From a virus, in the IMG/VR virus record IMGVR_UViG_3300020045_005677, positions 1 to 64,000 of that record: a stretch of 64,000 nucleotides of DNA. One strand, given 5' to 3'. Each line of letters starts with the position of its first letter. The first letter of the stretch is position 1. A model generated the notes under the pieces. The model did no database searches. It was given only the letters and a program-made list of their open reading frames with translations, and had not been told where the DNA came from. The translations under genes and the position numbers were made by a program. Below are positions 373 to 6,610 of this stretch, piece by piece.

Positions 373-422
373 TATAATACTGGTAGAATTAATTTTCTGC
401 TGGTATTATATAATTATTTTTT
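373..422 (+). terminator. intrinsic terminator
   Basis: 16-bp stem TATAATACTGGTAGAA / TTCTGCTGGTATTATA with three G-U pairs, followed by TAATTATTTTTT. Confidence 0.7.
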
Positions 423-504: not shown

Positions 505-2667
505 ATGAAAAATAATAACATTATAAGGGTAAATGATAAATATGTGCTACGGCCTTTGTCAGAGTACAATAAAGCATTAGTAATAGAAGAAAGATATAAC
601 ACTATGTCTTACGAATATATAAAAGATTTAGTTGTAGAAAAAGTTATATCTACGATAATAGAACAGGTTGGTAAAAGTAATATTAGAAATGTACTAATTA
701 AAGCAAATCATCAAGAGTTCAATCCTGATACATTAAATAAAATTAGAGAGATAGCTAGAGCAGTAAAGAAAGAAAAGATTAAGATATATACCTTAGACTA
801 TTTAGGTAAAGATAGTTTATTGCAAAAGATGATGAATGATTATTATCATTATTGTTCTATAGATGTGGATTCAATATTTATGTTAAGAGGAATATATGGT
901 CCAAGACAATATCGCAAGCTAGTACCTTTTGACAAGCTTGCATTAGCTCTTACCTTGCAACAAAATATTGAAACTAAAATAATTAGTATGGATGACTTTA
1001 ACCTAATGCTTAAAGATAACAATATAGATATAAACAAGTTAAACAAAGCAGATAAAAACTCTATCTACTTGTCATATGTTATATATATGGGATTTTATTC
1101 TTTAGGTACGAAATTAGAAGCAAATATACTTCCAAAATTTGATTTTGATACATACATGTCTAGAATTAAAAAACATATAGATTCTAGTAAGGATATTTTT
1201 AAAGCAATGCAGGATATTAAAGAAGCTGGTGGATTTATAGACTTACCAAAGATGTGGGATGACAGTAGTAAAGAGTTAGATAAGCAAAAGGATATAATGT
1301 TATCTGCTTTTAAAGTTGAAGTATCAGGTGTAGAACTTGAAATAAATTATAAACATCAATTAGATAGTCTTATTGGAAAACCAAATGGTTTACGTTCAGA
1401 TTTATTATATATAATTAAAGATAAAACACTTAGTGATGTCTTTTATAAAAATAATGAATTAGAGTTTTCTAGTTATGATATATATAGTATTGGTGAAACA
1501 CAAGAGTTAAATTTAATTAATACTGAAACCCATCATTGGTATGCAATGAAGAGAGCTGCAAGTGATAGTTATCTAATTGCTAATCTTAAACATCCAAATA
1601 AAGAATATTTAGTTATTGTTATTAAAAGAAAGAGCGACGAAAAGAATTTTACATTTGCAGTATTAAAAGATTTAGATATAAGCAGTAGCATAATGAATAA
1701 ACATTCTGATGCTGATAATTTATCAGAAAAGAAACAAACACAAGCACTTACTCCAGAAGAGAAGCTTTTAACTACTACAAAATTAAACTTTATGGAAGCT
1801 ATTGATAATCTTAGTACAGTTCTTAAAATAGCAGTATATGGTTGTGTAAAAAAAGATTCTAATTTATTATTGGAGTTTTTCCCAGCAAGTAGAGATTGCA
1901 TTCATGTACATTTAAAGTACAAAGAAGATAATAAAATAATATTTAGTTTTGGTATTAGCAATAAAGACTCTATTTCCATTATGGAAATGTTTAAAGATAT
2001 AGATATAAATGGTATAGAAATAAATAGAAGTGAATATGCTTATGCTAATGGCCTAGATATTCTTTTAAAAGTTGATGATTTACAAATAGAACAAGCTATT
2101 AATGGATTTGACGATTTAAGTATTATCAAGTATACCTTTTCTAAATTAGCAGAAAATATAGGTATACTTACACTACAAAGAGAATCTAATCGAACTCTTA
2201 CTCTTAAAATGGGAGGTTTTTTTAGAGGACAAAAATATCCTGCTATTAATCTTAAATTAAAACCTATGGACCAAAACAAAGTATCTGAACTAGAAAATAT
2301 TAAATTCTTAGGTCCAGTGTCTCTTAAAATAGATACTGCTATTGGTGTAAATAACTTTATAAAAGAGTTTAGTGGTAGAAATACAAGTGATGCTATTTAT
2401 ATATTAAACATGACATATGAACAAGCATTCCCATTTTCAACATATGAGAAATGTTTTACAGAAGGCTTTAGAGTAAAAGCTATTGAAGTAGATGGTCTTC
2501 TTAATAATGAAAAATATTGGTATATATTCAATTTTCCAACAACTCCAAATAATTTAAGATTTAAAGTTAAAGAGACAAACAAGAACTTCCTAATGATAAA
2601 AGTTTATAGAAATAGTGACAATATGGAGTTTATATTTGCATTAAATAAAAAAGAGGATAAAGAATGA
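505..2667 (+). CDS. hypothetical 720-aa protein with internally repeated ~50-aa module
   Basis: Long ORF with AGGA RBS; the repeat WY..K...D..L..LK..NK.YL.I...RKSD...F.FA..K recurs as WY.F....NNL.F..K..NK.FL.I..RNSD...F.FA..K at the C-terminus. Confidence 0.8.
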   Translation: MKNNNIIRVNDKYVLRPLSEYNKALVIEERYNTMSYEYIKDLVVEKVISTIIEQVGKSNIRNVLIKANHQEFNPDTLNKIREIARAVKKEKIKIYTLDYLGKDSLLQKMMNDYYHYCSIDVDSIFMLRGIYGPRQYRKLVPFDKLALALTLQQNIETKIISMDDFNLMLKDNNIDINKLNKADKNSIYLSYVIYMGFYSLGTKLEANILPKFDFDTYMSRIKKHIDSSKDIFKAMQDIKEAGGFIDLPKMWDDSSKELDKQKDIMLSAFKVEVSGVELEINYKHQLDSLIGKPNGLRSDLLYIIKDKTLSDVFYKNNELEFSSYDIYSIGETQELNLINTETHHWYAMKRAASDSYLIANLKHPNKEYLVIVIKRKSDEKNFTFAVLKDLDISSSIMNKHSDADNLSEKKQTQALTPEEKLLTTTKLNFMEAIDNLSTVLKIAVYGCVKKDSNLLLEFFPASRDCIHVHLKYKEDNKIIFSFGISNKDSISIMEMFKDIDINGIEINRSEYAYANGLDILLKVDDLQIEQAINGFDDLSIIKYTFSKLAENIGILTLQRESNRTLTLKMGGFFRGQKYPAINLKLKPMDQNKVSELENIKFLGPVSLKIDTAIGVNNFIKEFSGRNTSDAIYILNMTYEQAFPFSTYEKCFTEGFRVKAIEVDGLLNNEKYWYIFNFPTTPNNLRFKVKETNKNFLMIKVYRNSDNMEFIFALNKKEDKE

Positions 2668-3572
2668 AAGAAGAAAATAGAAGGATACTAATGATATCAG
2701 ATGGTGATATGATTAGAGCTAAAAATAAAAAAACATATAAGGTTGACGGAGAGTTTAAAAAGGCTACGATTGTAGCCAACTCTCAAGCCGTATATCTATC
2801 TGTAAATGATGACAAGTTATGTGTTGGTAGCAAAGATAGTATTTCTTGTTATGGTACAATATCAGTATCTAATCTTGATGCTGGATATTTAATGCAAAAT
2901 GCTAGCCACTTGCTTAGCGCTTTTATTATAAATGATATTGAAGTAGAAAATATTATATTTGTATTAGATAGTAAAATATTTAAATTTTACGAAACAATAA
3001 TATTTAGTTTTGTATTTGCTGTTAAAAAGTATTCTAAACAATATGGTACTAAAGTATTTATTAAAAAAGATAGTAGTAATATGGATAGTCTTGCAAACAC
3101 TATTTTAGAAAAATATAATGCATATGCTAAAAAGTATTTAGATTTATCGGTATATGATAAGTCTATTAGCAGATTCTACATGATATCAGCTACTGACTAT
3201 CTAAACAATAAAGAAGAACAAGATAAAATACTTGGTTCTTTAAAAGTATTATTAGCAAGAGATATTAGAAGTCAAGATGTAATTAAAACGGTAGAAATAA
3301 ATATAGTTGCTTCTGGAGCTCCAAGAACCAAAGAGAATAAAAAGAAGATTAAAGAGATATCTGAAATGCTTTATATTCAAGAGCATATCTATAGAGCATA
3401 TAGATTATCTGTTTTCTTAGATTCTGAAATCTTTAATTATAACAATGATAATAAAATATGCATGGAGAAAAATGTAAATGAAACGATAGCAGTTAGAGAT
3501 TATAAAACAAAAATAAGAATGTTAAATATTGTAGGTGCAATTGGACTTTCTGAAAAAGGATTTAACCAATGA
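2664..3572 (+). CDS. hypothetical protein, paralog of the next gene
   Basis: ATGA-coupled ORF; shares LEKYN..AK.YL.L...D.....FY.ISA.D..NNKEEQ...L.SL with 3569-4405. Confidence 0.8.
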   Translation: MKEENRRILMISDGDMIRAKNKKTYKVDGEFKKATIVANSQAVYLSVNDDKLCVGSKDSISCYGTISVSNLDAGYLMQNASHLLSAFIINDIEVENIIFVLDSKIFKFYETIIFSFVFAVKKYSKQYGTKVFIKKDSSNMDSLANTILEKYNAYAKKYLDLSVYDKSISRFYMISATDYLNNKEEQDKILGSLKVLLARDIRSQDVIKTVEINIVASGAPRTKENKKKIKEISEMLYIQEHIYRAYRLSVFLDSEIFNYNNDNKICMEKNVNETIAVRDYKTKIRMLNIVGAIGLSEKGFNQ

Positions 3573-4405
3573 GTAAAATAGGTTATGCTATTTATAAAAT
3601 AATAAATGGTGGCGGTCTTAAAGAAATTAAAAGAGAGTATGAAAAATTTAAGATAGAATCTACTGCTAGTATAGTAGCTGTTGAATATAATTATATACTA
3701 GAAACCAAGTTTTTAGTTCCAAAAGGCATGCATATTTCTTTTCCAGCTCATCAAGCAGGAAAGACAGAAGAGCCAAGATTACGTACAGATGGAATATTTT
3801 CATATATTAAAAATGCTTCTCCTGATGCAAAACATATTCTTTTAGTCCCTGAGAAAAATATACATTTAGATAAAGACACTAGAAATAATATCTTTAAAGA
3901 TGCTAAAAAAAATAATATGGAAGTATTTATTAAGGTTATGCATAACACGAAAAATAATGCTAAAGCTAGAGCATATTCTATTTTAGACAAATATAATCGG
4001 CTAGCCAAAGAGTATTTAGCTCTAGATGAAATTGATAGAATAAATAGTCCATTTTATTTAATATCTGCAGAAGACTTTATTAATAATAAAGAGGAGCAGA
4101 ATAGAGTACTGGAGTCATTGATGGCTTTACCATTAAGTCAGCACAAAGATATATTAAATCGTATTGTTGTTGTTAGTACTAGCGATGAAGATGCAGATGC
4201 GGAATTATTGGAAAATAAGACTGAATCATTATTTGTTCATAATCTTATTTCTAGAGCTTATACTATATCTATGTGTTTAGAAGGAATGATGTTTTCTAAT
4301 CAAAAATATGCTACTGAATTAAATGCTAAAATGAAAAAAGAAACAGAACATATGCAAAATTATGTTACATTATTAAAATTTGGATATAAGAAAGGATTTA
4401 ACTAA
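3569..4405 (+). CDS. hypothetical protein, paralog of the previous gene
   Basis: ATGA-coupled ORF; shared C-terminal domain; P-loop-like FPAHQAGKT near the N-terminus. Confidence 0.8.
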   Translation: MSKIGYAIYKIINGGGLKEIKREYEKFKIESTASIVAVEYNYILETKFLVPKGMHISFPAHQAGKTEEPRLRTDGIFSYIKNASPDAKHILLVPEKNIHLDKDTRNNIFKDAKKNNMEVFIKVMHNTKNNAKARAYSILDKYNRLAKEYLALDEIDRINSPFYLISAEDFINNKEEQNRVLESLMALPLSQHKDILNRIVVVSTSDEDADAELLENKTESLFVHNLISRAYTISMCLEGMMFSNQKYATELNAKMKKETEHMQNYVTLLKFGYKKGFN

Positions 4406-5181
4406 TGAATAAAAAAATAAACTACTTCGGTAGAGTTACAATTGAATATATTACTGAAGATACTATTAATATTATTTTAAAAATAAGAGACTCTGATGTA
4501 ATATTATTAAACAGTATTGTTAAATTAAAACATAGCGATAAAGTTGAAGACATAAGGGGATTGTTCTATTCAGATATTATTCTACTACATAAATTGTTTG
4601 GTGCAATAGGAATGTTAATAAATAATAATAAACTAGCAAATACTCCAGAGTATCAATTCCATTCTGTAGAGTTAATACATTATGCTGGCTGCCAGCATGT
4701 AGATAATCTAAAGAATCTATTGGTTGGTTTTACTTTTATGGATAATATACTTGCTAGGCATGATAGTTTTGCTCTTAATTTTAATATTCCACTAAAAGAA
4801 GAAATGTTTGAAGATAATACTTTAAAAATAAATACTAAAAGTAATGATATGTGTATTGGCGTAGACAATGAAGAGCTTATAGATAATCAAGAAGTAAATG
4901 AAATTAAACTTACGCATCCTAGTGAATATTCTGGTGTGGTTATAAGCGTTGACAAGAAAGATGGTAATGTTGATGTTGTTGGATTAGATAATCAAGAGCC
5001 TGGACAACTTGTAGAGTTTAACAATGGAGTTCAAGGAATGATACTTAATGTATGTCCTACTTATGGAAACATAAAAGTTATAATCTTCCAGGAAGACATA
5101 AATATAACTAAAACTTCAAGATGTAAAAACTTAAATAGAAAACTAGAATTTCCTTTAGGGGAACTTCCAAAGAGAGAATAA
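4405..5181 (+). CDS. unknown N-terminal domain fused to an F1 ATP synthase alpha-subunit N-terminal beta-barrel (ATP-synt_ab_N-like)
   Basis: Residues 174-258 (EYSGVVISV..DG.V.VVGLDN...GQLVEFNNGVQGMILN...NIKVIIF...I......RKLEFPLGE) follow the AtpA pattern G.VI.VGDGIA.V.GL.N...GELVEF.NGV.GMALN....NVG.VI.G....I......RI.EVPVGE. Confidence 0.75.
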   Translation: MNKKINYFGRVTIEYITEDTINIILKIRDSDVILLNSIVKLKHSDKVEDIRGLFYSDIILLHKLFGAIGMLINNNKLANTPEYQFHSVELIHYAGCQHVDNLKNLLVGFTFMDNILARHDSFALNFNIPLKEEMFEDNTLKINTKSNDMCIGVDNEELIDNQEVNEIKLTHPSEYSGVVISVDKKDGNVDVVGLDNQEPGQLVEFNNGVQGMILNVCPTYGNIKVIIFQEDINITKTSRCKNLNRKLEFPLGELPKRE

Positions 5182-5183
5182 AA

Positions 5184-5621
5184 ATGTATAATAAAAGCAA
5201 TACATATAGTACTTCTGAATTTATTGCAGAAGTAAAATACTGCAACCTTGAAGCGGTCGATAGGGTTGAAACCTATAACTGGTTAAGGGATTTTATAATT
5301 GAGTCTATTGAGGCATTTATGAGCAAAAATCTTACAGACATGATAATTCAAAGTTCAAATACAGTAATAGAAAAAATTATATTTGATGTAAGAGATAAAA
5401 CCAGAAGAAAAGCAAATATATTTGCAGTTAAAAATACAGACAAGTTTTACAATGTATTCTTTAACGATTACAATATAGAATCTTTTAGCATTCATTTGTA
5501 TTTAGTAAAAGATAAAGATTTTAAATATGCATTTAAAGCAGAAGTAAGTTCTATAATCTTTAGAGAAAAAAGAGAAATGAGTATTTCTTCTCCTCGTTTT
5601 GCATTAAGCTTAGATAGCTAA
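5184..5621 (+). CDS. hypothetical protein (145 aa)
   Basis: ORF at the end of the + strand operon, before a bidirectional hairpin. Confidence 0.7.
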   Translation: MYNKSNTYSTSEFIAEVKYCNLEAVDRVETYNWLRDFIIESIEAFMSKNLTDMIIQSSNTVIEKIIFDVRDKTRRKANIFAVKNTDKFYNVFFNDYNIESFSIHLYLVKDKDFKYAFKAEVSSIIFREKREMSISSPRFALSLDS

Positions 5622-5623
5622 AA

Positions 5624-5661
5624 TTATATACTACATATCGTAATTGATATGTAGTATATAA
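5624..5661. terminator. bidirectional terminator-like palindrome (TATACTACATA family)
   Basis: Perfect 16-bp stem TTATATACTACATATC / GATATGTAGTATATAA, 6-nt loop, between convergent genes. Confidence 0.7.
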
Positions 5662-5674
5662 TACTTTTATTTTT

Positions 5675-6610
5675 TTATCCAAATAGCTTACTCAAAGCTG
5701 ATACCTTCTGAGTACTACTTAATGTTTTACCACTATAATCAAAACTAGCTAATATTGGTTTAGACTCAGTACTCAATAATGATTTACTAGCTAGCTTGGG
5801 TACAATGCTATTACCTTTTAATTTTTCTAAACTAAAGTTACCATCATTTCCTTTTAACCAATTAGGAGACAATGTATTTAAACTATTGCTTACTCCAGCA
5901 TAAGTACTATCGCTTAGATATGGTGTACCAATACTCATTACTGAAGGCGAAGTATTACTATTAATACTATTTAATAACATGTTACTAGAATTAGGAATTA
6001 ATCCATTTACACTACTAGCATATCTACTACCAGCTAAGTCTTTTATTACTCCAATACTATTACCACCAGTAATAGACTTTAATACATCAGATATAGCTCC
6101 AGTTACTAAACCTATAGTAGACATACCTGTATCTATTATAGTATCCAATAAACTAAATACAGCTGTTACTCCAGCACATAACAACATAGCTAATAGCGCA
6201 GCTAATGAATATCCTAATAATGATAAGTTAAATCCACCTAGATTTAAGTTTCCACCTAGTCCACAACCTCCACTACCTACTCCACTTAAATCAGATTGTC
6301 CAGTTAATGATAACTTAGATAATCCTCCTAAGTCTCTACCAAATAAAGCTCCTAGTAATGCTAGTATCTTATCCTTAACAAATCCTAATAAGTCAGTTAC
6401 AAAACCTACTGCTTTTACTACAGCATTCATTAATGCTTCTAGATTTATTTTAATAAAATTACCTATCACTTCTAATACTGTACCAGCACCTGCTGCAATG
6501 CTCTCTAAGAGACTTTTTTCCTGTTCGGCATATAAGACATTGGCTTTAGCTAAATCAGTCACCATAGGCGTATTTAGATTAGTACCGCTTATTAATAAAT
6601 TAGATGCCAT
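5675..6610 (-). CDS. probable virion structural protein, Gly/Leu/Ser-rich with a hydrophobic segment
   Basis: AAGGAG RBS; lies downstream of the sheath-tube block; resembles phiKZ-type virion proteins in composition. Confidence 0.55.
   Translation of the reverse strand: MASNLLISGTNLNTPMVTDLAKANVLYAEQEKSLLESIAAGAGTVLEVIGNFIKINLEALMNAVVKAVGFVTDLLGFVKDKILALLGALFGRDLGGLSKLSLTGQSDLSGVGSGGCGLGGNLNLGGFNLSLLGYSLAALLAMLLCAGVTAVFSLLDTIIDTGMSTIGLVTGAISDVLKSITGGNSIGVIKDLAGSRYASSVNGLIPNSSNMLLNSINSNTSPSVMSIGTPYLSDSTYAGVSNSLNTLSPNWLKGNDGNFSLEKLKGNSIVPKLASKSLLSTESKPILASFDYSGKTLSSTQKVSALSKLFG

Follow-up and report, generated by a model that had tools for sequence, protein, structure and literature searches.

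An uncultured freshwater giant (jumbo) phage encodes a protein of 258 amino acids, D, whose residues 176–253 are homologous to the N-terminal crown beta-barrel of the F1 ATP synthase alpha subunit (AtpA). The homology is confirmed and is specific for the alpha type of barrel. The domain itself is well known; a lone crown barrel on a phage protein had no precedent in GenBank phages, IMG/VR or the viral structure library, and the full-text literature that we searched contained no description of phage-borne crown domains or of phage ATP synthase inhibitors. These results agree with an earlier note on this DNA, which knew of no such fusion. To our knowledge, crown barrels are otherwise confined to ring ATPases, where they form the N-terminal collar. 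In this jumbo phage, one has been cut out cleanly and stands free of any ATPase, apparently under selection and with its conserved positions rebuilt.

The phage and the operon of gene D

The protein is encoded in a 64,000-nt window, the whole stretch of DNA analysed here, which is the first half of an IMG/VR virus record of 128,412 nt (CheckV completeness 48%, GC content ~27%). The record encodes a phiKZ-type tail sheath and tail tube as well as a split phage RNA polymerase subunit, the tail sheath having an identity of at most 33% to that of any cultured phage. In public runs the region occurred only in DNA contigs of a single freshwater metagenome study; there was no RNA dataset among the public runs listed.

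Gene D is the fourth of five genes, A to E, that make up one transcription unit:

373..410, plus strand: terminator-like hairpin at the end of the upstream unit (16-pair stem, then a T-run)
505..5621, plus strand: transcription unit A-B-C-D-E, five genes with overlapping or abutting stops and starts and with terminator-like hairpins at both ends
505..2667, plus strand: gene A, 720 aa (open reading frame)
2664..3572, plus strand: gene B, 302 aa, paralogue of C (blastp of B against C, E 7e-15)
3569..4405, plus strand: gene C, 278 aa, paralogue of B (open reading frame, blastp)
4405..5181, plus strand: gene D, 258 aa, two-domain protein (open reading frame; orthologue P0002)
4405..4752, plus strand: N-terminal domain of D, aa 1–116 (beta-beta-beta-alpha-beta-alpha in the AF2 model, pLDDT 50–65)
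4753..4920, plus strand: linker of D, aa 117–172, predicted disordered (AF2 pLDDT 26–33)
4930..5163, plus strand: AtpA-type crown beta-barrel of D, aa 176–253, corresponding to AtpA 28–101 (profile and fold matches)
5184..5621, plus strand: gene E, 145 aa (open reading frame)
5623..5662, plus strand: terminator-like hairpin at the end of the A-E unit, between convergent genes (18-pair stem)

None of the genes A, B, C and E has detectable relatives of known function or any similarity to a barrel or to ATP synthase. For gene A, no relatives at all were found in PHROG, Pfam, PDB, GenBank phages (tblastn) or Atlas. B and C are paralogous over their full length (28% identity), both end in K-G-F-N, and each has a single relative, in a sister phage: P0018 is the orthologue of B (66% identity) and P0017 that of C. 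The longest contig recorded for P0017 and that for the orthologue of D, P0002, have the same length, 26,002 nt, so the two probably lie on one contig. Profile comparisons (hhalign) of D with the B/C family and of E with D were not significant, and the AF2 model of B, obtained from a four-sequence alignment, was unusable (pLDDT 42.6).

Strain-variant contigs of the freshwater runs carry a 13-nt deletion at 5264, inside gene E, and, in gene B, a 1-nt indel at 2875 and a compensating pair of such indels at 3271/3273, all of which may reflect either frameshifts in these alleles or mistakes of assembly. Convergent with the operon, and not far from the genes for the tail tube and sheath, the minus strand encodes at 5675–6610 a Gly/Ser/Leu-rich protein of 311 aa without family match, with a strongly hydrophobic stretch at about residues 126–160.

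The open reading frame of D is as the earlier note had described it. Its N-terminal domain had no relatives in Pfam, PHROG, PDB or Atlas and no paralogue in the 128-kb record, and its linker resembled nothing known in the same four collections. Among 5.8 billion protein clusters and 1.8 billion representatives, the only orthologue was P0002 (254 aa, 61–66% identity); in fact, the exhaustive search of the representatives with D returned this protein and short AtpA fragments, and nothing else. D had no relatives in GenBank phages (tblastn) or in IMG/VR (pattern scan) and no match among the BFVD viral structures at E ≤ 0.001. A strain-variant contig of 705 nt, spanning 4487–5191, differs by 10 substitutions without gaps and leaves the frame of D intact.

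An alpha-type crown barrel at the C-terminus of D

Searching the PDB sequences with D (phmmer) gave 59 matches at E ≤ 10, of which the top 51 and four weaker ones were F1 alpha subunits (best match, E 2.3e-6). Beta, V-type and FliI chains were absent from these matches; the remaining four, to ribosomal protein L6 and haemoglobin beta chains (E 0.49–0.94), fell within the N-terminal part of D. With a two-sequence profile of D and P0002, all 54 PDB matches were alpha. The NCBIfam atpA model (TIGR00962) matched the barrel, and only the barrel, with E 4e-7 and 29.1 bits, which is under the 484-bit score that stands for a full-length AtpA. Using a profile made from 80 AtpA proteins, residues 1–130 of each (AtpA-N), we obtained 49.0 bits for D and 44.3 bits for P0002, in both cases for profile positions 28–101 only. 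Comparison of profiles (hhalign) gave P 5e-15 for the D barrel against AtpA and nothing against AtpD. The Pfam family ATP-synt_ab_N (PF02874), which the earlier note had proposed as a check, scored 14.2 bits on D residues 176–242 (E 0.063, profile positions 5–67 of 69), below its gathering threshold of 20.9 bits, and 16.8 bits on the same barrel in a six-frame search of the phage's own record; the more specific AtpA profiles were the ones that gave clear matches.

The predicted structure points in the same direction. The AF2 model of D has six strands at aa 177–246 with a pLDDT of 72–93, although AtpA fragments were part of the alignment behind it, so that it leans towards the AtpA fold. Foldseek aligned this barrel with alpha chains of the PDB (E 3e-6, rmsd 1.2–2.7 Å over 70–79 residues, 35–39% identity). 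Both the profile match and the structural match to the AtpA barrel on which the earlier note had staked its reading were thus found, and its placement of the domain was borne out, with the barrel at nt 4930–5163 beginning within 2–3 codons of the position 4924 that it had given.

Other elements of that description need to be sorted. The part of D in front of the barrel (residues 1–175) is indeed unrelated to AtpA, as judged from Pfam, phmmer against the PDB and the AtpA-N profile, and the protein does stop where AtpA would pass into its nucleotide-binding domain: its C-terminus lies five residues past F-P-L-G, the counterpart of the V-P-V-G that closes the AtpA barrel. However, the delta-binding helix that the earlier note cites is absent, since positions 1–27 of the AtpA-N profile, which represent it, were unmatched in D, as was the linker into the nucleotide-binding domain. 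Because only AtpA 28–101 was matched, only the ring-forming module appears to have been kept. D contains no Walker A motif, the HAS-barrel (PF09378) did not appear in its Pfam scan at E ≤ 1, and the nucleotide-binding domain PF00006 had no match anywhere in the 128-kb record (48% complete). Judging from its sequence, D has no delta-binding helix and no P-loop domain, and a catalytic role is not to be expected.

Compared with its closest known relative, the F1 alpha crown barrel (PF02874; about positions 28–100 of TIGR00962), the barrel of D is alike in sequence (at most 45% identity), in predicted fold, in domain boundaries and in its alpha-specific character. It differs in lying at the C-terminus of the protein, whereas in AtpA it is N-terminal, and in being fused to a phage-specific domain, while the delta-binding helix is missing, as are the nucleotide-binding and C-terminal helical domains. 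Two hairpin insertions of 2 residues each are present as well, and 15 of 31 near-universal residues have been replaced. The same barrel superfamily includes the FliI/type III secretion ATPases, the A and B subunits of V/A-type ATPases and the HAS-barrel of HerA; in these ring ATPases the barrels serve as a ring-forming collar and as a docking site for stator proteins, and, as far as we know, they always sit on an ATPase domain. None of them was matched by D, all the ATPase chains among the PDB matches being F1 alpha.

Divergence, selection and origin of the barrel

The three parts of D have evolved very differently. Between D and P0002 the barrel retains 74% identity and the N-terminal domain 66%, whereas the linker has drifted to 36% with 15 gapped positions. 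Together with the intact frame in the strain variant, this conservation speaks against a decaying fragment, the outcome that the earlier note had named as fatal to its proposal. The GC content at third codon positions of the barrel (0.186) equals that of the neighbouring phage genes.

By comparison with cellular proteins the barrel is strongly diverged. Its mean identity to the sampled cellular AtpA groups is 31–41%, the best single value being 45%, whereas these groups share 45–68% with each other. Among 56 cellular AtpA barrels, 31 columns are at least 85% conserved. At 12 of these near-universal positions, mostly G, L, F, N and P, both phage proteins have kept the cellular residue; at 15 both have another one, which in 11 cases is the same in both. 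This shared choice of new residues suggests new constraints common to the two phages. With a conserved fold and rewritten AtpA positions, it is the barrel fold that appears to be selected, the constraints of a working alpha subunit being gone. The barrel seems, from these sequence comparisons, to be old, ameliorated, under selection and re-purposed.

The earlier note had also proposed a tree. We ran it against cellular AtpA, and the phage pair stood on a branch of ~4 substitutions per site; on such a branch the apparent sister, two rows of a second phylum, is not trustworthy, and the donor lineage cannot be named. The best cellular matches of the barrel were in Alphaproteobacteria and in this second phylum, reached via a metagenome-assembled genome (MAG) labelled Deltaproteobacteria, whose AtpA barrels gave up to 45% identity and 46 bits. 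The AtpA barrels of a phylum reached via a MAG labelled Bacteroidetes gave only 17–28 bits, and those of low-scoring Pseudomonadota with gammaproteobacterial-type sequences 12–25 bits; all genomes sampled for this comparison lay outside the Campylobacterota. Given the long branch and the untrustworthy sister, we rejected calling a donor or a host from the barrel domain.

In the course of this comparison, one 4.5-kb contig of the MAG labelled Bacteroidetes gave 41 bits with an alphaproteobacteria-like AtpA barrel, against 17–28 in 40 other genomes of that phylum; this contig is probably mis-binned.

A candidate beta-type barrel and possible roles

A profile made from 54 AtpD N-termini (AtpD-N) and scanned over all 214 open reading frames of the 128-kb record picked a single one, p187 (E 0.002; next E 0.11):

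126691–127254 of the genome, outside the window: p187, 187 aa (AtpD-N profile match)

Residues 7–81 of p187 are collinear with the whole AtpD barrel (hhalign P 1.3e-4; P 0.54 against the AtpA profile). The match is weak (~12 bits, 21% identity), and none of 2000 shuffles reached its score. p187 had no match in Pfam, NCBIfam and PDB sequence searches, no homologue in the protein collection and none in the five genomes searched. Its N-terminus is a probable beta-type (AtpD-like) crown barrel, as far as sequence similarity of this kind can tell; an acidic stretch and a coiled-coil-like helix follow, with a heptad pattern at aa 93–130 (77% hydrophobic residues at positions a/d). Ahead of p187 lie two genes of 230 and 240 aa that are paralogues (blastp 3.7e-15), and an overlapping gene of 148 aa follows it. 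We detected no homology between the other genes of the D and p187 operons, and the 148-aa product compared with the N-terminal domain of D was not significant (hhalign P 0.036). Like D, p187 would be a lone crown-type barrel without ATPase domain, and its gene lies in a small accessory operon with translational coupling and two paralogues at the start; unlike in D, its barrel is of the beta type, N-terminal, far more diverged (~21%) and followed by the acidic stretch and helix. The phage probably carries a matched pair of alpha and beta crown barrels. Moreover, since the 128-kb record (48% complete) gave no match for a nucleotide-binding domain or for the gamma and delta subunits, crown pieces are all that it appears to have of the enzyme.

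The reading that we tentatively favour, as possible though short of probable, is that the barrels of D and p187 dock these two phage proteins onto each other as in the F1 crown. The loss of the delta-binding helix, the same rewriting of the conserved AtpA surface in two phages and the apparent beta-type barrel in the genome make a docking pair the best fit. The barrel of D would have derived long ago from an F1 alpha crown domain and been kept as a protein–protein docking module, with the beta-type barrel of p187 as its most likely partner. In F1, the AtpA barrel packs against beta barrels in the crown; those of D and p187 would pack side by side in the same way and so join the two proteins. 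One possible form would be a six-membered ring, with three molecules each of D and p187, held by the coiled-coil-like helix after the p187 barrel, with the N-terminal domains of D displayed on flexible tethers of ~55 residues. This geometry is attractive, and we infer it purely from the parts; the binding of D to p187, its stoichiometry and what the resulting complex does we infer as well. Several facts weigh against the pairing: the beta-type signal of p187 is weak, the two genes are 122 kb apart, only the p187 gene run follows a copy of the promoter-like motif described below, and p187 has no orthologue, so that co-occurrence in the sister phage was not seen. Two separate captures would also be easier to explain if each barrel was at first useful alone, against the host enzyme. 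If they do pair, this would be a natural case of a virus building its own assemblies with a hetero-oligomerisation interface borrowed from a host machine, and it would offer protein engineering a compact orthogonal alpha/beta docking pair.

The earlier note had suggested a decoy or modulator of the host F1Fo, or else a borrowed oligomerisation module. The capture stands; a decoy is weakened by the missing helix, the divergence from AtpA and the internal beta-type candidate, and the oligomerisation module, for which the docking of D to p187 would be a possible form, is better supported. A host-directed mimic would use the alpha-type barrel of D to dock the beta crown barrels of the host, or a different host factor with affinity for the AtpA crown, and thereby poison new F1 assembly, tether the N-terminal domain of D to ATP synthase subunits or titrate the host factor, with p187 doing the mirror-image job on host alpha. 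We regard this as somewhat unlikely. In its favour, the phage seems to have taken the two crown partners of a single host machine, and no other part of that machine was found; each capture would be selectable on its own as an inhibitor, the alpha-specific character has outlasted a long divergence, and the domain was cut exactly as the ring-forming module. However, a mimic should stay host-like, and no cellular AtpA exceeds ~45% identity to the barrel among 1.8 billion representative proteins and the GTDB species genomes with an AtpA carrying either of two barrel motifs. Of the near-universal AtpA residues, half are replaced, including conserved charged ones, a change of which residues freed by the loss of the nucleotide-binding domain could explain a part. 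In addition, the delta-binding helix is missing and assembled F1 has no free crown edges, so that only nascent subunits could be hit. That both crown halves, alpha in D and beta in p187, were taken and aimed at the host enzyme, stopping or redirecting new F1Fo assembly, we consider unlikely; each barrel might then cap the complementary nascent host subunit, or the two together might make up a pseudo-crown in which stator or assembly factors become trapped. Binding of host subunits would open the unexplored question of phage manipulation of ATP synthase; if D and p187 are aimed at the host in this way, they would be the first known case of a phage product directed at this enzyme.

AtpA ancestry might also be only historical, the barrel now serving for homo-oligomerisation of D or for binding some other phage or host ligand, possibly the product of A, B, C or E. 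In favour of such a role, the barrel has diverged strongly from AtpA and has acquired residues common to both phages, D is coupled in translation to four lineage-specific genes, and B, C and D all have orthologues in the sister phage, those of C and D probably on one contig; related barrels, moreover, form homo-hexamer collars in FliI and HerA. We nevertheless find this quite unlikely, since it leaves the beta-type barrel in the same phage unexplained and since A, B, C and E show no similarity to the barrel or to ATP synthase. Least credible of all, indeed highly improbable, is a non-functional leftover of illegitimate recombination with host atpA, carried along by a functional N-terminal domain. 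Although only two phages carry the barrel and its Pfam score is under the threshold, it is the best conserved segment in a pair of orthologues that are 61–66% identical overall, next to a linker that has drifted with indels. Neither of the orthologues nor the strain variant has stops or frameshifts, and the residues that determine the fold are kept, the fold itself being predicted with confidence.

A promoter-like motif, CACATATYA, bears on the relation between the two operons. It occurs in 18 exact plus-strand copies in the 128-kb record, usually extended to CACATATTAT.AA.TAGTA. A copy of the CACATATTAT motif at 123591 precedes the p187 gene run, but none lies ahead of the D operon, the interval between the hairpin at 373..410 and position 505 included; co-regulation of the two is therefore not evident. 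Eight copies fall within the window:

6657, 14316, 18481, 28945, 30784, 35418, 42996 and 57098, plus strand: promoter-like motif CACATATYA (exact match)
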